The notes under the pieces were generated by a model, which saw only the letters and a program-made list of their open reading frames with translations, was not told the origin of the DNA and did not search any database. A stretch of DNA of 64,000 bases from assembly GCA_963820525.1 (NCBI GenBank), contig CAWGAA010000001.1, positions 480,001-544,000 of the forward strand. Direction: 5' to 3'. The stretch is from an uncultured Spirochaetota bacterium. GTDB taxonomy: Bacteria > Spirochaetota > Spirochaetia > SZUA-6 > Fen-1364. Both the position numbers and the translations under genes were made by a program. The first letter of the stretch is position 1. Every line of letters starts with the position of its first letter. Of the stretch, positions 3,280 through 13,919 are shown piece after piece.

Positions 3280-5043
3280 CTACAGCGGCCGATCCACGAG
3301 CCTGTAGAGCTCATCCCGCGATACCACGTGCCAGATCGGCCTTCCGTGAGGGCAGCGGGGAACTTCAAGCTCAAGGGCCACGCGCAGAAGCTCGGCGGCC
3401 GCAAGCGGGTCCACCGGGTCTCCCTCTTTCACTGCAAGCCTGCACGCCGCGCGCGCAACAAGATCCCGCCTCCACTCTTCACCGGACGCGATGGAGCCCT
3501 TCACAATCTCGATGAGGCCCGCTTCGGGCAGCGTGGCGAAGTCTGCGCTGAGCGCATCGATCTGGTATGAGCGGATTCCGCTGCGGCGGAGAACCATGCC
3601 CAGGGCGCGAAGATCGTCGAGCCTTTTTGAAAGCTCTGCATCCTCGTCCGCGGATACGTCGAAGCACAACGGAATAAGAAGCTCCTGGATCTTCGCAGTC
3701 GCTGCGTTCAACCGTTGGAAAATGATCTTCTCATGAGCGGCATGCTGATCGAGGAGGATGAGCTTCTCTTCCACCTCGAAAGCCAAAAACACTCCGAACA
3801 CCTGACCGAGAAACCGAGCAGGCACGCCGGCGGGCCTCTCAGCCGCTCCCGCTTGCGGAGGAGAATCAGGGAGGAACCCATCGGGCAGCGCGCGGGAGCC
3901 CGGCCGCAGTGGAAGGTCGAGCGGCCTCTCGCCCCGGTAAATAGGCGCGGCGCCTGAAGCCGGCCGAGAAGGCGCCTGCCCGCCCCCGACTGCGCGCGAT
4001 CTGGTTCCCAGGAACTCGCGGGTGGCGCTTACCACCGCCGCGTGCACGTCAGGGAGATTCCTGAACCGCGCCTCCTTCTTTGCCGGATGAATGTTGAAAT
4101 CGACAAGCGAGGGATCGATCACGATGAAGACAAAGGCCATGGGGTGCCACCCTCCGGGAATAAAGCCGGCAAACCCATACTCCGCCGCCTGCATGAGCGA
4201 GTACTCCGGAATCCGACGGCGATTGACGAATACTTGAAGAAGCTTCCTGTCGCGCTTTCGAAGCGACGGGTCGGCAGCCACGACCTGAACGGAGAACCCA
4301 GTTCCTCTGGACTGCCCAATGCCCAGGAGCCTCTCATCGATCGATTCTCCGTACGCCGAGGATATCCTCTTGGGCGCCGGTGTGGCAGGAAGAAAAAGCT
4401 TCAAAGCGCCGTCCGTGAAAAGGCGAAAAGCGACTCCGGGATGGGCAATGGCCCTATCCACGAAGATGGATCTGCAGAGGCTCGACTCCGCCGAAGGGCT
4501 CTTGAGGAATTTCTTGCGCGCCGGAAAATCGAAAAAAAGCTCCGATACCTCGGCCGCGGTCCCCTCCCTCCCCTGGCAGCTCTCTATGCCCAGGAGCTTT
4601 CCTCCCCGGACCACCAGGCGATTCGCTGGGGACAGCCTTTCCGCGCCGGCACCAGAGGCGGGTTTTGCGTTCAAGCGCGCGGCGCTCACGATCTCCAGGC
4701 GACCGGCCACAGCCATGCTGGAGAGGGCTTCACCTCGGAATCCCAGGCTGGTCACGGTGAGAAGATCGTTTTCCGTCTCGATCTTGGAGGTGGCGTGTGG
4801 CTGCCAGCACAGCTCCAGATCTTCGCGGTCCATGCCGGCCCCATCGTCCACCACGCGAACCCGTGAGACGCCTCCCGCCTCGATGTACACATCTATGGAG
4901 GAAGCGCCCGCGTCGATGCTGTTGTCGAGCAGCTCACGCACAATGGAAAAGGGCCGATCGATCACCTCGCCGGCCGCGATCTTTCGGGAAACCTCGTCCC
5001 GGAGGATTGCGATCCTCCGGGACCGGGAAGCGTCGTCGGGCAT
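3280..5043 (-). CDS. mutL: DNA mismatch repair endonuclease MutL
   Basis: KIAAGEVIDRP, ELLDNSIDAG, LGFRGEALSS, DQHAAHEK, CPHGRP. Confidence 0.97.
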   Translation of the reverse strand: MPDDASRSRRIAILRDEVSRKIAAGEVIDRPFSIVRELLDNSIDAGASSIDVYIEAGGVSRVRVVDDGAGMDREDLELCWQPHATSKIETENDLLTVTSLGFRGEALSSMAVAGRLEIVSAARLNAKPASGAGAERLSPANRLVVRGGKLLGIESCQGREGTAAEVSELFFDFPARKKFLKSPSAESSLCRSIFVDRAIAHPGVAFRLFTDGALKLFLPATPAPKRISSAYGESIDERLLGIGQSRGTGFSVQVVAADPSLRKRDRKLLQVFVNRRRIPEYSLMQAAEYGFAGFIPGGWHPMAFVFIVIDPSLVDFNIHPAKKEARFRNLPDVHAAVVSATREFLGTRSRAVGGGQAPSRPASGAAPIYRGERPLDLPLRPGSRALPDGFLPDSPPQAGAAERPAGVPARFLGQVFGVFLAFEVEEKLILLDQHAAHEKIIFQRLNAATAKIQELLIPLCFDVSADEDAELSKRLDDLRALGMVLRRSGIRSYQIDALSADFATLPEAGLIEIVKGSIASGEEWRRDLVARAACRLAVKEGDPVDPLAAAELLRVALELEVPRCPHGRPIWHVVSRDELYRLVDRPL

Positions 5044-5054
5044 CTCGGCTCGAC

Positions 5055-7202
5055 CTAGAAGTGGATGCTCGTCTGGATAGCCAGGGACGTGTCCATCTCG
5101 GGCAGTATCGTTTTCGAACCCTCGTTATAGACGATATTTCCGTTTGCATCCCTATGCGCCGTTGCGGAGTAGAGAAGGATAATGTCGAGATTCGGCGTGG
5201 CCGAATAGGCGATCTGCGCGCTCACAACGGTGTTTGCATCGAAGAGGGAAAGCCCTTCGGCACCCTGGCTCTGAAGGATCGTGGAGACGAACCTGTTCCT
5301 TTCATAAGACACGGAGCCCGAGAGGTTGACGACGGGGATTACGCCCTTTTCCAGCGTGAACGTGGCTATGAGGTGGTCGTTTGGATCCGCCACGATCGCC
5401 CCCGTCGAGTCGTACGCCCACGGCCAGTAATAGCCGATCTTGAGCCTCAAGATCTTCTCCAGGGTGAATCCGCCTTCCCCGTAGATGCCCATCTCGACCC
5501 TGTCGAACGCGGGGTCTGAAGGGTTCTGGAGATAACTCATGACCTCTGCGGTGTACAAGAGGCGGTTGGTTCGCGTGTAGACGGTGTCGTAATAAGCAGG
5601 ATGGGAGATTCCCGTGAAATATCGGTATTCCAATCGATAGTCAACCATTACGATGTTGCCCAGGACTCCCGCCGCGACGCCGTAGTTCTTCAGCCCTGAA
5701 TCCCAAAGGGTGTTCCACTGATAGCCGGTCTGGATCGTCGAAAACCAAGGCGGCGCCTGAACAAACGGTACCATACCCGTCATGTCGGCGAAGGCAATGA
5801 GCGAGAGGGCGTCGGACTCGATGAACGGCACGTCGATGTCCAATCCCGGGTTGAAGATCATCATCTTTCCCATCACGTACTCGGCAGGCACGGGGAAACC
5901 CATGATGGGGAGGGTACTGTCCCCCGCGGGATTGAGGTCCGCGAGCAGGGACACGCCCAGCGCGGCGCGGAAGCCGGGGATGGGCCGCGCAAAGAGCCTT
6001 CCGCCGACGATCTGCGGTAGCGCGGCGTCGTCCATCATGGCCTCCATGCCGAAGCCGCCGAGGTCCAGGCCGAGATTGAGTCCGACGCGCCTGACGGCGG
6101 GGAAGTCGGCGTCATTTGCGTAGTCCCTCATGATCACGCCATGGCCGATTGTGATGTCATCAAGGTTGCCCGCTTTGAAGTAGAAGGGGTCCCTCTGCTT
6201 GCCGTATTCGATGTACTTGATCTTGAGAACGAGGTCGTTGAAGGCGTCCAGGGGATCCCAGGCGGAGGCGGAAACGCCGAAGTTCCACTCATCGTTGCCC
6301 GCCGGCCTGTAGTAGTCTCCGGGATCGAACATGTTGTCGGTGTAGATGATGGGGAGGTAGAGACCGAGCTTCAGGTCTCCGATGGAGAATTGCGGGGAAA
6401 TCACGACCTTTGCGTAGGTGTTGCCGCTGATCGTGATCGAACCGATCTCCATGCCGAGGATGTTGCGAAGCCATCCCATGACGCCGTCAAGCGGTCCTCC
6501 TTGGCCCGGTCCGGCCGCCTGCGAGCCGGGGCCGTGTCCCGGAACATCCTGGGGGCTCAGCTTCTCGAAATCCAGGTCCTTGTGGATCTCCTGAAGGAAA
6601 TCAGCAGGGATCTGGACGGGCTTGAACTCCGGAGCCATCGCATCCGCCATCATACCCTTGGAGATTTCCACGGTCTCTCCCGTGGCCGTCTTGGTGAATT
6701 CGATTTCACCATCAAGGACGAAGGCGGTCTCTTTGTCGGTTTCCACGTCGAAGCCGAAGTCAGTGCCGCGAACGCCGCACACGGCCGAGGGCCCCTGCAC
6801 ATTGTACTTTTCCTGGCCCGTGGCCTTTCCGGCAACGGCCCTGATCTTGCCTATGGCGACGGAGAACGTGTTTATTTCGCCCGCGGCGCTCTGGAGGCTG
6901 TCCACCTTGAAGTTCGTCACCTGGGAGACCTTGATGATGGTGCCGTTGGGGTCCAGCTTCAGCTCGACCACGTCGCCCTTGTCCGTGACAACGGTCCAGC
7001 CCGGAAGGAGGCGGGTGCCAATGTCGAACTGCACGGCGTTCTTTCCCTGGTCATAGATGGCGAGATTGCCGCTGGCATTATCGATGTATTCGATGACAAC
7101 GGAAGGAGCCGAACCCTGGGGCTTCTGGGCTTGCGCAAATGCCGCGCACGATATCAGGAGGAGAACCCCTGCTATGACGATGCCTGGTTTTCTCGTATTC
7201 AT
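5055..7202 (-). CDS. Secreted protein with N-terminal FecR-like domain and predicted C-terminal outer-membrane beta-barrel
   Basis: Signal peptide (AFA-Q); FecR-type SAVCGVRGTDF; alternating-pattern beta strands; C-terminal Phe (QTSIHF). Confidence 0.65.
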   Translation of the reverse strand: MNTRKPGIVIAGVLLLISCAAFAQAQKPQGSAPSVVIEYIDNASGNLAIYDQGKNAVQFDIGTRLLPGWTVVTDKGDVVELKLDPNGTIIKVSQVTNFKVDSLQSAAGEINTFSVAIGKIRAVAGKATGQEKYNVQGPSAVCGVRGTDFGFDVETDKETAFVLDGEIEFTKTATGETVEISKGMMADAMAPEFKPVQIPADFLQEIHKDLDFEKLSPQDVPGHGPGSQAAGPGQGGPLDGVMGWLRNILGMEIGSITISGNTYAKVVISPQFSIGDLKLGLYLPIIYTDNMFDPGDYYRPAGNDEWNFGVSASAWDPLDAFNDLVLKIKYIEYGKQRDPFYFKAGNLDDITIGHGVIMRDYANDADFPAVRRVGLNLGLDLGGFGMEAMMDDAALPQIVGGRLFARPIPGFRAALGVSLLADLNPAGDSTLPIMGFPVPAEYVMGKMMIFNPGLDIDVPFIESDALSLIAFADMTGMVPFVQAPPWFSTIQTGYQWNTLWDSGLKNYGVAAGVLGNIVMVDYRLEYRYFTGISHPAYYDTVYTRTNRLLYTAEVMSYLQNPSDPAFDRVEMGIYGEGGFTLEKILRLKIGYYWPWAYDSTGAIVADPNDHLIATFTLEKGVIPVVNLSGSVSYERNRFVSTILQSQGAEGLSLFDANTVVSAQIAYSATPNLDIILLYSATAHRDANGNIVYNEGSKTILPEMDTSLAIQTSIHF

Positions 7203-7220
7203 GTGCGCACCTCCCCTGGG

Positions 7221-8571
7221 CTAAAACAGCTTGATGGAGCTCTGGAGGCCGGAGGTTACTATCCAGTCCGGCGACTGCCCCGGAGCATAACGAATCATGT
7301 AGATGAACGATATGACGGCAGGCCCTGTCATGTAGTTGAGCTTGGCCTGGATGGAAGCATTCAGGGGGCTGATAAGCTCGGCCCAGCTCGTTATGCCCTC
7401 CTTGTCATAGCTGCAATCCACCGAGATGCCGGGGATGACGCCCTCCGCAACCGTGAGGATGCCGCGCAGGTGCGGGTAGTTCAGGACGTACTGGGGATCT
7501 CCAGGAGAGGCATCGGGATACGGCACCCCGAAGGGACCATCGAGGACTACGGTGAAGAGGAACTTGTCCTGCAGGAAGGAGGTGCCAAGGCTTGCCAGCC
7601 ATCCGTAGGAGACCGCGGTGGCGAGCCCGGCCTGCACGGTGTCGAAGCGGCTGGACCGGAAAAGGTCATAGGTCGCATCGAAGTAGGAAGGGATGAAGTT
7701 CGGGCCGAGGATCCTGAATTGAGCGCCGTAGGAGAGAAAGCCGATCAGCCGTCCGCCGAGCCCGATGGCACCGCCCATGCTCTTCCCCTGGATGGAAGCC
7801 AGATCCGCGAAGGTGGCGAGCGAGAACACGGGCATGGAGACGATTGGCAGGCGGAGGTCGCCGCCGAAGACCATGATGGGGGCGGCGGCATACGCCGTCG
7901 GGTTGTACAGGTCGGGCAGTGTATCGGCGACAATGGTCCCGCCGAACTCGAGGTCCTTGATGACGGGCGCATCCAATGCCGCCAGGGGCCTCACGTACAA
8001 CCTGCCGCCCACAACGTCGAAGAACGCGAGGTTTCCCACCACGGTCTCGATCCCCACGAAGGGAAAATCGAACAGGGCCCCGTCGAGGTCGAATGAAAGC
8101 CCGAATATCCTCTTGCCCGGCATGAAGAGGGTATTGTCGTAATCCGCCATGATGAAGCCATTGCCCAGGGTGCCGTCCCTGAGTGAGCCCGCCTTTATGA
8201 ATAGCGGATCACCCTTCAAGCCCCAGCGGATGTATGCGATCTTGGAGAGATAGATCGAAAGAAAGTCGCTGAAATCTGCGGGAATCCAGTCGTCTTGCCG
8301 AACGACGATCTGGCTTCCCGAGGTGAAGCGGTAGTTCAGCGTGATATCGAGCCCTATCCCGAATTGCCCGATGCCAATGTCCGGGAAAAGCGTCAGGGAC
8401 TGGTAGGTGACGGGCATCTCCCGGGTCATTGAAGGTGTTCACTCCGATGCCAAGCGCCAGGCCGAAAGCGAGGGGATTGCCCGCCTCCCCCTGTTCCTGC
8501 GAGAAGACCAGCGCCGCCGAGAGACCTGCCAGGAGAAGGATGAGGAAGAGTCGCCGCAGAACAGCCGCCAT
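7221..8571 (-). CDS. Predicted outer-membrane beta-barrel protein, paralog of the barrel in 5055..7202; apparent one-base insertion near 8420
   Basis: GGAGG plus ATG at 8571 gives a signal peptide (MAAVLRRLFLILLLAGLSAALVFS); removing one base near 8420-8425 joins it to ORF 7221..8429; ends SSIKLF. Confidence 0.7.
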
Positions 8572-8633
8572 TGCCGCCTCCTTGCAACCTCTTTGAATTA
8601 TAAACCCCATGAAGTGATAAAACAATTACGGGG

Positions 8634-11600
8634 TCAGAACTTCAGTTTTGCCGTCAACGAAAGTTCAAATGCAATCCGATATGCCGAAAGTCCCGCTGAA
8701 AGGACACTCCTGATCAAATCCGATTCCCGCTTTTCCATCGATAGACCCGTTTTTTGGGAAAACGAGGGAGGTGGTGTGCTCGAGGAGCACGGTGAAGGGA
8801 TGGAATGCCTCGGGGCTCGCGTATCGAAACGTGAGCTCGGCAGATTCCTTGTGGGAGAGAAAGCCCGAATGCCCGATATCAGGGGGGATCAAGGGGATGG
8901 CAAGCCCTCCGGCCGGATGCATGCTCCACTGAAACGCGAGCTCGGTTGCGTCGGTCAGGCTCACGGAGCCGGCGAGGATATCCAGCACTTCCCATTTGAA
9001 GGAATGGGTGAGCGTGAACTCCTCTTCAGCGAAACCCTCGATGCTGGCGTAGAGGTCCGCGGTCGTTTCTGTCCACCGGAAGGCCTGGCCCGGCATGGCG
9101 GTAAGTGAAGCCCCGAATGAGAGGCCGTACTCGTCCGTTCTCGCGAAAGGCATCAGGGGATTGGACCCGAGCTGGCCGAAAAGGTTGAGGGCGCGTGAGG
9201 AGATTTTCGGGAGGATGAAGATCTGGGTGGAAGAAAGCACCCCATCCTTCTTGAGGTCCTGGCCAAGGGTGAGGTCGACCGACGAGGGCAAAAGCAGGTC
9301 ATAGAGATGAGAGCCGAAGCTGCGCTGCACGCTGAAGGTGGCCCGCGGGCTGTAGGTTGCCAGCGACGCTTCCGCCCACAGGGGGAGGATGGCCGAGGAA
9401 TTGTCCTGAAACAGCTCCGCGAAAGGCACCGCGCCCAGCAGATAGCTTTGAAGCCCGATAAGGCTCCCGTAGGTTTGGGCTTCGGAGATGAACCTCTCCC
9501 CCGCCTCGGGGCTGGTGAGCAGGGTGACGAGCCTCTGGTAGCCGAGGCTGATGCTGAGGTCATTGGAAGGTGAGCTTCCGAAGTGAAGCAGGAGTGCAAG
9601 GGAGAGATCGAGGTCGTTTTCCTGGTTCCGAGCCGATGCGGTGAAATCCGCGCTTTTCACGAGCGCTTGCGTGGAGGCATGGATCCCGATGGGGCTAGGC
9701 TGGATGTCGAAGGAGATATCGAGCTTCTCCCGCCTGGCCACATCCTGGCCGCCGGTCCACGGAAGGACCAGCCCCATCTCCCTGACCCACCTCTGGCCAT
9801 ACCAGAGGGAAGGAAGCGGATACCCGGAGACGGCCTGAAATACCTCGATCTCGGAAGCCAGAGCGACGTTTGGGATGGGGGCGAGGGTGAGCTTGCCGTC
9901 CCACCGCTGGCTCAGGAGGCTCTCTGTCCCATCGGATTCGGTGTCGAGCAGAAGGCCCACGCCTCCCAGGGGCTTGATCTCCAGCAGGTTCTCCCTGGTA
10001 AACTCCCCCAGCCATGTGAGTGAGAAAGCGTCCGTGAGGGCGACGGGGAAGCTCACCGAAGGGACAGTGACCCGATGCCCGCCGGAAGCCGTGAAGGTGC
10101 CTGCGAACTCGCGCAGAAGCAGATCCACCGTGATGCTCGAGAACAGGGCGTCCACCCCGAGCTCGGTCTTCGAATAGATGTCTTCGTTCTGGGAGGGAAT
10201 CCCATACAGCGTGGAAAAGCCGGGCGAGATGAGGGAGAGCTTCTGATGCACGGCGAAGTTTCCCAGAAGGGGGACGCCGCCCGCCTGGATGATGACATCG
10301 GGATGCTTGTACGAGACCTCGGCGTCCAGGGCGGCCCCCACGGAGCCTTCCGGGTCCTGGCATTGGACCTCATCGATGTAGATGGCGCCGCTGGCGGTAC
10401 CCGAAACCGTCACTTGGAGCTGCGCGATGCTGCCATACCCGGCGTCGAACCGGGGAGGCGATGCGCCCGTGTCGTTGCCGTCAATTCGCACTTTCCCATC
10501 GCGCTTGGACGCTTTCATCTCGTGCCAGGGCCCGACGGAGATGGCGGAGGAATCCACGTCCCAGGAGATCCCGCGCCCGCTCGTATCTTTCAGGGAGAAG
10601 CTTATTGTGGGGGATCCGGCAAGAGCGGCAGGGATTCGAATGTACAGGGCAATGGTATCGTACTGGATTCCTCCCGTGCCCTGGGTCGCGCTCGCATAAG
10701 CCGTGATAACAAGGGGATTGGTAAGGGGAGTGTAAGACCCCCCCAGGACTGACCCCCACAGAGCTTCCAACACTTCCTGCGGTTCTCCGTTGGGGTGGAA
10801 CATTGTTTTCACTGTCGGGAAGACGTCCGCAAGCCTCTGGCCGGAACCGGGATCGTAAGCAGCCAGGGGCTCGGCGATCTCCTTCACGGAGACGCTTCCT
10901 GGCACAGTGCCAGGCGGGGTCTCCGCCCCATGCTCGGCCGCGCCTTCGAAGGAGATATTATCGATCAGGACCTGCCCCGTCACGCCGGTGGCGCCCGTCG
11001 CCACAATGAGCAGCCGCAGCTGCCGCGTATTGGTGAGCTTCGCTCGCATTGTCCCATCCAGGGGAATCGTCACCTTCTGCCATCCGGAATCGGCTCCCGA
11101 GGAAAAGCCGAGACTCGAGTTTGTGATGGTAAGCACGCGGGAGGCATCCTCCGAGTCGAGGATTCCATTGCCGTCGCGGTCTTCAGAATCGAGCCTGCCG
11201 TTGCCCTGGCCCTTGGGCCCGCCGCCCACCTTGAGGGTCACCCCATGGGCCTGGTCGTAGAAGGGGAAACCGGGGTCCGTGGGCGACGATTCGGCCTGGA
11301 GGATTCCATCGCCGTCGATGTCCTCGGTGATATTCCCCGCCTGCAGATACACCTGGAAATTGCCGCTGACGTCGAGCGTCCGGAGCTCGATTGTGATTGC
11401 CTGCGCCGTGGACAGATCGGCGCCGGTTCCCGCGGCCGGCAGGAGCTGGGCCCCGACCCAGCCGCCGCTGGGCACGTCGAAATCGAACACAAGGCTCGCC
11501 CCGGAGTTGGAGTCAGCCGCACTGCCCAGCACGTTGTAGGGCCCCATCCTGCCGCCGTCCGCATAGGGAACCGATATGGCGCTCGGCCACGTTATGGTAT

Positions 11601-13578
11601 TCAGGGAGGCCCCCCCGAAGGCATCGTACGCCCGGTAGTCCTTGTAAAAGAGGTATCCGCGGTTCCCCTGTGACAGCGCCGGTGCAGGCAATTCCCCCGT
11701 GACCGCGGGGGCAGCCGGGTAAGCGTTGTTCTCGGAGAGATCCACGAAAAGCGAGTTGCCCTCCATGCCGAAAAGCCGAAGGACGCCCGTTGTGTCGGGG
11801 TTTGTATAGGCGACGCCCCCCAGGACCGAGTACGACCAGTTCTCCCCCTCGCCCGAGATGCCGGCCTGGGCAAGTATCGTGCCGGATTTCGCATAGGGTT
11901 TCTGGGAGAAGGACCAGGGATCCGCGTTCCACCGGATGCCGGCCGCGAAGGAAAGCTTCATTGCGTCCGAAAAAGCGATGGTATCCCGCCACGCAAAGAG
12001 GATATCCCCGCCGGAGAGCCCCGCGGATGTCACGCGATAGCGGATCTCGATCCTGTCCGTGGAGCTGACATCGAAGAGGAAGGTCACCCGTCCCGCGGCC
12101 GGGTCTGCCTCGAAGCGGGTCTCCGTGATCCCGTTCACCGTCACCCTCACCGAACCGGGGACAATGTTCGGCTCCAGGTTGAACTCATTGGACGGCGTGA
12201 GGAGCTGGACATAGAGCTGGTAGCCTAAGTATCCCGACAGCGCGTCCCGGGGCTGCCCATAGATGAAACCGTCGTTATCGGGAAAGGGATACATGTTGCG
12301 GAAGTCGTCACGGAAGGCGGAGTTGGCGAAGACCACGAACCTCTGCTGGTCGGGAAGGGACTGGAATTTCAGCGCTTGAGCCGCGGGTGGGATACCATCC
12401 GCCCTCTTTGCCTGGAGCTGGATGAAGATGCGGGAAGGATCCGCCGGCGGCACATCGGTGAAGGCATAGGATGAATCGATCTCGAAGGGCGAGGTGTCGC
12501 CCGGCTCCCAGAGCAGCAGGCAGTTCGTCGCCCCTATGGAAACCCTCCTTGCGGTAAAAGGCTGCCCATTGAAATATGTCGTCAAACCCGAGAAATCAAA
12601 ATCAGCCCCTGCCGGCGGAGGCGGCGGAGCAGCTACAACCCGGCGGGTGTTCAAAGAATCGAGGGGGGGAAGCGCCCCCCTGCCCAGGGTAGCGTCCCCG
12701 ATGGCCACTCCCCCTTTTTTGTAATAGACGAGCACCCTCCCCTTCATCGCTGTTTTCAGCGACACCAGGCCGCCCGCCGCGTCCAGGGACGCATCGTCGA
12801 GGGTGGCGATCCTGTAGATCTTGTTGTCCCCCCCCTTGATGGAACCCCTCTGGGTGTCTTCGATATACACCACGAGGCTCTGGGGATCCACGCCCGCGTC
12901 GGGCAGGAAGAAGAAGCGTCCCCGCACGTAGCCGTCCAGGGGGATCGTCTCCTCCAGGAGCTCATTGGGGCCGAGGAAGGTTTTCGTCTTCTCCTCGGCC
13001 GAATCCCAGCGCAGGAGAAGCTCGTGCGTGGACATTCCGGAGGCGAAAAGGGCGGATGCGCCGAGGGAGCTTGCGGGCTGATCCGGAATCTCCATGAAGC
13101 CGGAAGACGGGATGGCGATGCCCCCGTTTCCCAGGAGGATGCTTCGAATCACCTCGGAACGGTCTCCACGGTAGCCGAGGGTGAGAGTGTTTCGCGTGGA
13201 TCCCGGGGCGGTCGGATCCTGGAAGTAAGCCAGGTCAAGGAAGTATTTCTGCATCAACACCACCGAGGCCGTGAGATTGGGAGACTGGGCGAAGTGGAAC
13301 CCCGTATCCATCGTGGGGAAAGCGTCGAGCAGCTGGAGGGGAAGCCCGGGCACGAAAAGAAACCCCGTGGAGAAGGACAGGCTCCCATCCCATGAGCCGC
13401 CGAGGTTGAAATCCACGCCGGCATCGCCTATCTTGGTGGAAAAGATGGTCGTGGGGGCTTCGGGCTCGGGAACGACGACTTGTTGTGACGGGAGGAGCTT
13501 GACGGTGAACAGCGAGAACACGAGTATGCAGGGAGCAAGCCGAGCCGCGCGTGTCACGTGGAGGACAGTATTCACCAA
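8634..13578 (-). CDS. Large (~1650 aa) exported protein with SprA-like motifs and predicted C-terminal beta-barrel; apparent one-base insertion near the 3' end
   Basis: ORF 8665..13578; hydrophobic N-terminus; NIVPGSVRVTVNG, GNITEDIDGDG, LDSEDRDGNGILD; shifted frame gives ...AYRIAFELSLTAKLKF with stop at 8634. Confidence 0.6.
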
Positions 13579-13631
13579 AACCCCCGTTCATGTAAATGAT
13601 TACCACAACCGAAAATGAAAAAAACAAAGCT

Positions 13632-13919
13632 ATGGTCGTATCGATGATTCAGTTCCGGCTCGAGCTCGTCGGCATCGAGTCGATCAAGGACAAGCGCCGC
13701 ATCGTCTCGTCGCTCAAGGAGAAGCTGTACCAGAAGTTCCGGCTCTCCGTGGCGGAGGTCGACCTCCTGGACTCCCTGGACCGCGCTCAGATCGGGGCGG
13801 CCGTGGTGTCGAACTCGCGGCGGCACGGCGAGGCCGTTCTCAACAAGGCCCTCGCGTTCGTCGAGTCCGAGGTGCCGGGGCGAATCCTCGATATGGAGAT
13901 ATTTTCGGAAGTGTACTGA
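13632..13919 (+). CDS. DUF503 (YlxP-like) family protein
   Basis: 95 aa; SIKDKRRIVSSLKEKLYQKFRLSVAEVD...AQIGAAVVSNS. Confidence 0.85.
   Translation: MVVSMIQFRLELVGIESIKDKRRIVSSLKEKLYQKFRLSVAEVDLLDSLDRAQIGAAVVSNSRRHGEAVLNKALAFVESEVPGRILDMEIFSEVY

Follow-up and report, generated by a model that had tools for sequence, protein, structure and literature searches.

The analysed window, a stretch of 64,000 nucleotides, came from an uncultured Spirochaetota bacterium, and the spirochaete host named in the first-pass annotation was borne out. It contained three co-oriented minus-strand genes in the order giant, B1 (middle) and B2 (third), flanked by syntenic neighbours. The features were as follows.

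8634 to 13578, minus strand: SprA-like giant outer-membrane barrel gene (predicted), about 1646 aa, with a likely one-base assembly insertion near 8705/8706
7221 to 8571, minus strand: predicted barrel gene B1, about 450 aa, with a frame break near 8415-8420, ending in SSIKLF
5055 to 7202, minus strand: predicted barrel gene B2, 715 aa, ending in QTSIHF
3280 to 5043, minus strand: mutL, the downstream neighbour, syntenic in close relatives, with no functional link implied
13596 to 13919, plus strand: DUF503 gene, syntenic upstream neighbour, likewise with no functional link implied

The intergenic gaps were 62 bp between the giant and B1 and 18 bp between B1 and B2, and mutL lay 11 bp beyond B2. 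All three proteins showed a hydrophobic, signal-peptide-like N-terminus as judged by eye, which confirmed the earlier description of closely spaced genes for exported proteins. Promoter and terminator scans of the locus gave chance-level results. As called, the giant ORF runs to 8665 (1637 aa); the homologous C-terminus, AKLKF, is encoded in the next frame. An intact homologue (P0001), which is 96% identical and 1646 aa long, ends in AKLKF. The base at 8415 was absent from public-run contigs in all three runs covering the position, and the base at 8705/8706 was likewise absent in three of three runs, one of the runs behind this comparison possibly being the source sample itself. Therefore, both frame breaks are likely one-base assembly errors, and a pseudogene reading of the broken ORFs was rejected on the same contigs. 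After correction all three proteins end in Phe, as had been noted (AKLKF, SSIKLF, QTSIHF). The terminal Phe was found in 45 of 50 aligned giant homologues, and in most close relatives B2 has a terminal Leu.

The resemblance of the giant to SprA, proposed earlier from motifs, was supported through its relatives and its predicted structure. The window protein itself had no match in Pfam, NCBIfam or PDB sequences in direct and close-relative profile searches. Among 26 relatives, 14 matched TIGR04189 (SprA/Sov), 13 of them at E<1e-6 and the best at 7e-43. Thus the profile resemblance held for relatives and not for the window protein, and it stayed below the curated cut-off of 200 bits throughout: the best relative reached 146 bits, none of 301 sampled Spirochaetota genomes exceeded 200 bits, and direct sub-cut-off matches occurred in 101 of the 301. 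The motifs quoted for the giant ORF were all located, with EFNLEPNIVPGSV...ADPAAGRVTF at about 12186-12082. This module probably lies inside the region for which relatives align to about positions 575-790 of TIGR04189, judging by its position and not by a residue-level alignment. A core profile of the giant family recovered 3149 representatives. PF14349 matched none of the 26 relatives. One atlas cluster carries PF14349 on 12% of its members, which is a lead only.

An AlphaFold model of giant residues 32-1231 (pLDDT 89.7, pTM 0.82) was compared with known structures. Foldseek placed four SprA chains at ranks 1-4 (E 1e-37 to 6e-25; next 5e-9), and VIA gave Z 22.4 against SprA over 889 aligned residues at rmsd 5.4, with the next family at Z 16.3. 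The large barrel expected for this protein was also predicted: about 36 strands in SprA topology were mapped onto P0001, a count that we read from DSSP lists and that is uncertain by one or two. The parts of the giant were placed as follows.

12976 to 13419, minus strand: predicted barrel strands 1-7, residues about 54-201, from DSSP of the model and alignment
12082 to 12186, minus strand: conserved EFNLEPNIVPGSV...GRVTF module in the giant ORF, named by the first-pass annotation
10399 to 11796, minus strand: large insertion of about 470 aa that separates predicted strands 11 and 12 and contains jelly-roll domains
8637 to 10389, minus strand: predicted barrel strands 12-36, the last being the C-terminal Phe strand

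The jelly-roll insertion falls within the range aligned to SprA, carries EDxDGDG and SEDxxxNG motifs and is predicted to form a cap, presumably on the extracellular side. This insertion is absent from a 1137-aa homologue, which aligned at full length, end to end, with SprA 132-2401. As a whole, this homologue gave a weak model (pTM 0.51; rmsd against SprA 6-13), for which VIA scored the Mtr-complex barrel 6r2q_B level with SprA (Z 17.0 vs 16.4).

Profiles and models together identify the giant as a divergent homologue of SprA, for which the Flavobacterium johnsoniae protein (PDB 6H3I, 6H3J, 8GL6, 8GL8) and Sov served as references. The giant shares fold and domain order with SprA across the 889 aligned residues, together with the approximate strand number, a capping insertion and the C-terminal Phe, and it likewise occurs alongside type-A-like tagged proteins and a PorV-family barrel. 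It differs in its length of about 1646 aa, where the SprA chain is numbered to 2401, in an identity of 11-13% and in a family score below the TIGR04189 cut-off. Strand 1 starts near residue 54, roughly 22 residues past the predicted signal end, and alignments begin at SprA 132-134. Because only these 22 or so residues precede strand 1, the SkpA-binding N-terminal segment of SprA has no counterpart. The host phylum also differs from that of known systems, since type 9 secretion systems (T9SS) were reported only in Bacteroidetes in PMC4793230.

The first-pass annotation had suggested the two neighbours as partner barrels. B1 and B2 were paralogous, as it stated (27% identity, E 3e-18). B1 comprises a signal peptide and a predicted porin-like barrel, and B2 comprises a signal peptide, a FecR domain (residues 70-168), a linker and a barrel paralogous to B1. 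Both have at least 15 amphipathic strand-like stretches and a terminal Phe strand. By sequence they are distant relatives of Leptospira ImpL63 only. The match to ImpL63 (NF047543) was weak, with E 1.3e-5 and 24 bits across 60 residues against a cut-off of 1000 bits; the B1 profile found one or two relatives in 45 of 45 genomes of family f17, presumably Leptospiraceae. In PMC2698987, ImpL63 served as an inner-membrane-associated, non-surface control, whereas B1 and B2 are strand-rich with no clear transmembrane helix after the signal. Profiles of B1, B2 and the fusion barrel gave nothing usable against PDB sequences. Neither protein matched a PorV/FadL profile in Pfam, NCBIfam and PorV-family searches, so both were rejected as PorV. 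Language-model look-alikes of B1 and B2 were OprD, Porin_4, alginate-export and Msp clusters at about 0.90, as leads only.

Among loci of close relatives, 20 of the 21 informative ones had the giant next to B1/B2, as did 7 of 40 distant loci and 16 of 70 genomes with both positions given, the last figure being depressed by fragmented assemblies. This adjacency fell in two deep clades with different flanking genes, as placed by a quick version of the tree. Together with the short gaps, it favours B1 and/or B2 acting as a dedicated carrier or plug of the pore, at least where the three genes adjoin. However, over 301 genomes the giant and B families were uncorrelated (77 with both, 64 with the giant only, 85 with B only, 75 with neither; phi 0.015). 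Family f2 has the giant in 21 of 28 genomes and B in none, whereas f17 has B in all 45 and the giant was found in none. In one relative (L058) the giant directly adjoins mutL. With the missing PorV/FadL profile match, these patterns make a partnership quite unlikely. B1 and B2 are more likely a separate, ancient porin-like pair that in some lineages sits with the translocon gene in a probable envelope operon.

A stand-alone translocon, the other earlier suggestion, is also improbable, because the likely partners lie outside the window in the same genome.

G000:C1:1876412-1889251, own genome, outside the window: tagged giant protein, 4279 aa, with a signal peptide
G000:C1:104079-105347, own genome, outside the window: UPF0164/PorV-family barrel, 422 aa

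The search for shared C-terminal sorting domains yielded TIGR04183 (type A CTD) in the last 83 residues of the 4279-aa protein, above the cut-off (26.5 bits vs 23). TIGR04183 was matched by 27 of 30 tagged loci, and in all 30 loci examined the tag domain ends no more than 2 residues from the stop. With a mean column identity of 59%, the tag is strongly conserved, and it keeps the near-invariant C-terminal Lys that PMC10994853 describes for type A CTDs. Flagellar FlgD Ig models scored higher on the tag than TIGR04183. Long and variable, the candidate cargo is a repeat protein ranging from 1100 to 7462 aa. As in T9SS type A cargo and the gliding adhesin SprB, it combines a signal peptide with a very long repeat passenger, and its Ig-like C-terminal tag has the G.Y and terminal Lys motifs of type A cargo; SprB carries a type B tag according to PMC10994853 and PMC12635249. 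Unlike type A cargo, the tag is close to FlgD Ig, besides its strong conservation, and usually only one tagged protein occurs per own-class genome (28 of 29). Some families have at least 14 tagged proteins of many sizes.

SprA-like genes were found in 141 of the 301 genomes. The pore and a CTD-tagged giant occurred together in 124, the pore alone in 17, the tag alone in 7 and neither in 153, giving a phi of 0.84, which overstates the association because related genomes are not independent. Two of the seven tag-only genomes later yielded SprA-like fragments. In the own-class sample the agreement was complete (45 of 45): the same 29 genomes had pore and tag and the same 16 had neither, including a split of seven with both and five with neither within one genus. 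The 16 negatives remained without a SprA-like gene after a family-profile search, and in three of the five negatives of the split genus the genes on either side meet directly at the empty site. This joint loss within one genus argues for a specific link of the pore to the tagged protein. Since the two are mostly kept or lost together across the sampled phylum, the SprA-like pore likely exports the tagged giant.

The candidate carrier, the 422-aa barrel, exceeded the cut-off for UPF0164 (PF03687) and matched NF033709 (PorV/PorQ) at full length (positions 2-324 of 326, E 6e-15), but at 56 bits it was below the cut-off of 90, and PF19572 (PorV) gave no match in the profile search. It was present in 29 of 29 pore-positive and 3 of 16 pore-negative own-class genomes. 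Retention in the three pore-less genomes, one of which has five copies, indicates that the UPF0164 barrel has other uses. The NF033709 and UPF0164 matches make PorV/PorQ and the UPF0164 FadL-like barrels its closest known families, and treponemal proteins are termed 'PorV/FadL-like' in PMC13749626. It differs from PorV/PorQ in its sub-threshold score, a C-terminal TPR and its presence in some genomes without the pore. Two more PorV/FadL-like candidates were present. A 1365-aa barrel-Ig-OmpA protein (G000:C1:82089-86186) was set aside as carrier, as it tracked the pore more poorly (29/29 vs 7/16).

The first-pass annotation had seen no porK/L/M/N-like genes, and this agreed with the genome-wide search for PorL/M/N. 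GldL/M/N gave no match above the cut-off in the own genome or in 50 others, in searches in which no positive-control genome matched either. GldN matched in 0 of 50 genomes, GldM in 1 of 51 at 24 bits, and GldL in 7 of 50, only over short stretches of 613-753-aa ORFs, which we regard as probable coiled-coil matches in chemoreceptor-sized ORFs. The GldK model, used on the own genome only, matched formylglycine-enzyme-type proteins below the cut-off (best 106 vs 350 bits), which we set aside as generic domains of that type. The PorU sortase (NF033707) gave short Ig-region matches only, and type B carriers PorP/SprF (TIGR03519) gave no match, the control also being silent. The apparent lack of GldL/M/N and PorU would separate this system from the Bacteroidota T9SS, with the control limit on GldL/M/N noted above.

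Motor orthologues could escape these profiles, because TIGR04189 misses even the SprA homologue of this genome. With the GldK matches and the silent controls, this leaves some room for a fuller type 9 system with diverged GldK/L/M/N, or for a barrel that changed role into a large solute or lipoprotein channel and co-occurs with the tag through shared lifestyle. Such accounts are unlikely: the genomes screened for Gld proteins include some with a SprA-like protein that TIGR04189 does detect, the GldL/M/N counts were near zero or confined to short stretches, and the joint loss within one genus points to a specific link.

The locus likely belongs to a reduced type-9-like export system, as suggested by sequence and models. 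It is rather probable that the SprA-like pore of about 36 strands exports one tagged giant via a PorV-family carrier and without a Gld/Por motor, none having been found. Each of the three proteins has a signal peptide and would traverse the inner membrane through Sec. The 4279-aa protein, whose tag and co-occurrence were observed, would then pass from the periplasm into the pore with its tag leading, by analogy with SprA. At a hypothetical lateral opening, the tag may bind to the wall of the cavity and to loops of the co-occurring 422-aa barrel. Carrier and cargo would exit sideways, and the cargo would remain on the carrier because no PorU sortase was found. In the weakest step, release would be driven by a ratchet, with the repeat passenger folding on the cell exterior, instead of by a proton motor. 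Given the preceding steps, such a ratchet has somewhat less than an even chance, with an unrecognised motor about equally likely. The trapping of cargo without a motor in Flavobacterium, described in PMC10994853, argues against passive release, and the 17 genomes with a pore and no detected tag also count against this explanation.

The trapped state may instead be the end state, with the pore docking the tagged giant without translocating it, as a periplasmic fibre tethered to the outer membrane. The same source describes cargo loading on SprA-PorV as energy-free and release as requiring energy, which suits docking, as do the missing motor, the single tagged protein of most own-class genomes and the FlgD Ig-like tag. 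However, the cargo is long, variable and repetitive, as surface adhesins would be, and families with at least 14 tagged proteins of many sizes fit a general export route; docking alone is therefore fairly unlikely.

Export by the pore may be put more widely, at somewhat below even likelihood, as a minimal spirochaete system in which a SprA-type 36-strand pore works with one PorV-family carrier and with giant surface proteins tagged by a CTD, without a Gld/Por motor, in nearly half of the sampled phylum. We found no description of a spirochaete SprA-like system in the Creative Commons literature of PubMed Central and bioRxiv. If true, the translocon-carrier-tag core would predate the Bacteroidota gliding motor and be separable from it, an export route would be named for giant spirochaete surface proteins, and UPF0164 barrels would gain a candidate function. 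One lineage would keep the full barrel with most of the cap shed, and this natural 1137-aa short form offers a way to test what the pore minimally requires.

The window spans G000:C1:480001-544000, and three genes were placed close together in it. Its source genome, G000, is 5.05 Mb and 96.7% complete; the named relatives of the sequence are Spirochaetia MAGs.

13578-8634, minus strand: giant SprA-like (pore) gene, from ORF reading and an intact relative
8571-7221, minus strand: B1, from ORF reading and intact relatives
7202-5055, minus strand: B2, from ORF reading

The gaps were 62 bp between the giant gene and B1 and 18 bp between B1 and B2, with mutL 11 bp beyond B2. This confirmed the same-strand, closely spaced trio of the first-pass annotation, and the motifs and terminal residues quoted there were present as given. 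Two frame breaks were found, one in the giant gene and one in B1. The uninterrupted 1646-aa relative P0001 (96% identity to the giant protein) placed the first switch near 8705-8711 with the C-terminus AKLKF, and alignment with uninterrupted relatives placed that of B1 near 8411-8422. Four public runs were compared over 8200-9000. Both breaks are likely assembly errors, since all three covering runs had one base fewer at site 8415, as did all three at 8705/8706. Frame breaks at differing positions were also frequent in L034, L038, L040, L041, L043-L045, L047 and L051, related loci in which a pseudogene reading of split ORFs therefore needs reads.

Searched alone, the giant protein had no match in Pfam, NCBIfam or PDB sequences. 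Its family is large, with 56 matches in the homologue search, members in 121 of the 301 sampled Spirochaetota genomes and 3149 representatives of the core profile at E<=0.001. Members are 1137 to ~2100 aa long, with a C-terminal Phe in 45 of the 50 that were aligned. The SprA/Sov profile TIGR04189 matched 14 of the 26 relatives scanned, mostly at profile positions 70-260 and 525-810 (best E 7e-43; 146 bits, where the cut-off is 200). Among the 301 genomes it matched 101, none above the cut-off and none in the 45 genomes of the same class as the source genome. The profile check thus supported the relatives, always below the cut-off, but not the window protein itself. The union of family and TIGR04189 searches detected a SprA-like gene in 141 of 301 genomes.

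An AlphaFold2 model of residues 32-1231 (pLDDT 89.7, pTM 0.82) was compared with known structures. Four SprA chains took ranks 1-4 in Foldseek (E 1e-37 to 6e-25; TM by query at most 0.56), and rank 5 had E 5e-9. VIA aligned 889 residues with SprA at Z 22.4 and rmsd 5.4 (model 72-1200 to SprA 178-1767), with pilus ushers as the runner-up family at Z 16.3. The full-length model of a 1137-aa homologue was weaker (pLDDT 81.8, pTM 0.51); SprA was its top Foldseek match (E 4e-14), and its alignment to SprA covered 132-2401, at high rmsd and with the Mtr-complex barrel 6r2q_B level with SprA in VIA. We counted 7 + 4 + 25 = 36 barrel strands from two DSSP lists (+/-1-2), all with P0001 counterparts; 36 strands are given for the SprA barrel in PMC10994853. 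Strands 11 and 12 were separated by an insertion of ~470 aa with jelly-roll domains and EDxDGDG motifs, which was missing from the 1137-aa homologue. Natural short forms of 1137-1138 aa (L071:10741-14157, minus; L085:5842-9255, plus) had ~36 predicted strands without this cap insertion. Unlike SprA, the giant protein has no counterpart of the SkpA-binding N-terminus. Judged by profile matches in relatives and by predicted fold, it is a SprA homologue, as the first-pass annotation had suggested. By analogy, its barrel would work like the SprA translocon; it does not reach the cut-off of the SprA family, and we do not class it as canonical T9SS. A search of open-access main texts found no account of a spirochaete SprA homologue; related work includes PMC4793230, PMC12635249 and PMC13749626. 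Matches in 10.1101/2023.01.06.522999, 10.64898/2026.03.07.710327 and 10.1101/2020.06.09.142547 were irrelevant.

B1 (~450 aa) proved paralogous to the C-terminal part of B2, as previously noted (27% identity, E 3e-18). B1 and the barrel part of B2 each showed at least 15 amphipathic strand-like stretches plus a terminal strand. Neither protein had a clear transmembrane helix after the signal, and B2 carried an additional FecR domain. Language-model look-alikes were porin families at ~0.90, which are leads only. The sole named match, a weak one, was Leptospira ImpL63; its use as an inner-membrane-associated, non-surface control in PMC2698987 argues against an outer-membrane location of B1 and B2.

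Of 28 close loci, 7 were incomplete; in 20 of the 21 informative ones the B1-B2 pair came after the giant gene. The same order was seen in 7 of 40 distant loci, and the B family adjoined the pore gene in 16 of the 70 genomes with both positions listed. The linkage is likely old, since the adjacent cases fell in two deep clades with unlike flanking genes. The B family was present in 162 of 301 genomes, mostly in two copies, with 0/28 in family f2 and 45/45 in f17, which we take to be treponemes and leptospires. Its presence was unrelated to that of the pore gene (phi 0.015), so the neighbourhood held among close relatives without a genome-level association, and the proposed role of B1 and B2 as partner barrels was not upheld. 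The best reading of the pair is a separate envelope module that shares a probable operon with the pore gene; it may combine a pore with a FecR-type sensor or adaptor in the periplasm.

A 4279-aa repeat protein with a signal peptide is encoded in the source genome G000 (G000:C1:1876412-1889251), and its final 83 residues matched the type A C-terminal domain (CTD) profile TIGR04183 above the cut-off. A local search of G000 detected no second ORF that ends in this domain. The last 100 residues had matches in 131 of 301 genomes. In the 30 best loci this tag always ended within two residues of the stop, and 27 matched TIGR04183. A Lys close to the tag end was almost invariant, the same feature as the Lys near the C-terminus of type A CTDs described in PMC10994853. 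However, FlgD Ig models outscored TIGR04183 on the tag, which counts against the type A reading.

Pore and tag occurred together in 124 of the 301 genomes, pore only in 17, tag only in 7 and neither in 153 (phi 0.84, with kin not independent). Within the class, 29 genomes had both and the other 16 had neither; the giant-family profile found no match in these 16 and detected both positive controls. It also revealed SprA-like fragments in two of the seven tag-only genomes. Genus g8 comprised seven genomes with both and five without, and in three of these five dinB directly adjoined the gene that comes after the pore gene in a pore-positive relative. These three look like clean losses of the pore gene. 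From this sequence evidence, the 4279-aa protein is likely cargo of the SprA-like pore. Separately, G004, G020, G034, G046, G058 and G079 (families f13, f27 and f34) had 14-16 or more tag matches in proteins of many sizes, which suggests that their cargo set has expanded; G034 also had a B-family gene less than 10 kb from the pore gene.

In the search for a carrier, the profile PF19572 gave no match. The PorV/PorQ-family profile NF033709 spanned a whole 422-aa UPF0164-TPR protein (E 6e-15, 56 bits against a cut-off of 90). This barrel was present in 29/29 pore-positive versus 3/16 pore-negative genomes of the class, was absent from the three clean-loss genomes, and is a likely candidate for the carrier of the pore. 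Another candidate is the barrel at the N-terminus of a 1365-aa protein, which occurred in 29/29 positives versus 7/16 negatives. A PorV/PorQ-family barrel is described for Brachyspira in 10.1101/2025.01.03.631275.

G000:C1:82089-86186, plus strand: 1365-aa PorV/FadL-like barrel with eight FlgD/CHU_C-like Ig repeats and an OmpA domain (L110)
G000:C1:1726921-1729389, minus strand: 822-aa Ig-OmpA relative of the 1365-aa protein (L112)
G000:C3:742210-743493, plus strand: 427-aa protein, third candidate for a FadL/PorV-like barrel, weak N-terminal NF033709 match, no Pfam match (L188)

In several f2 genera the PorV/FadL-like barrel of the 1365-aa protein was a separate gene of 345-416 aa.

GldL, GldM and GldN profiles had no match in G000. 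In 50 other genomes, all chosen as pore carriers, GldN matched none, GldM weakly one and GldL weakly seven, in long ORFs. GldK gave partial matches below threshold only, PorU short Ig matches only, and the PorP profile search no match. The search for PorK-N and PorV partners thus yielded a PorV-family candidate below the cut-off but no motor set. The lack of motor matches does not equal absence of a motor, since the panel included no T9SS-bearing control and the SprA homologue of G000 itself escapes TIGR04189. A folding ratchet is our preferred energy source, at somewhat less than an even chance, and an unrecognised motor is about as likely. This analysis established the genes, homology, predicted fold, terminal tag and co-occurrence. 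On the SprA-PorV model, proteins would be exported by Sec, the tag would enter the pore cavity and be captured by carrier loops, and the cargo would exit laterally and be kept on the carrier.

The pore gene also occurred in other contexts. DNA polymerase IV (DinB) and the SprA-like gene shared one open frame in six f2 genomes:

L072:9397-15651, minus strand: DinB-SprA-like single frame
L078:9460-15336, minus strand: DinB-SprA-like single frame
L086, L087, L088 and L089: DinB-SprA-like single frame

The junction resembled an internal signal peptide, several without Met, and after cleavage there Pol IV might stay anchored to the inner membrane. At L071 and L085, dinB was a separate ORF abutting the pore gene. 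Immediately upstream of the giant gene, in divergent orientation, were an ion-transport-domain gene and an unannotated ~310-aa gene at L033:7869-9959, and also at L053, L058, L060 and L091; this pair was not at the corresponding place in the window. In other lineages the pore gene followed an M23 peptidase gene (L075, L077, L079, L082, L093-L096), a 928-aa Omp85-domain gene (L065, L067) or a third type (L061-L063, L090), presumably a flagellar rod gene.
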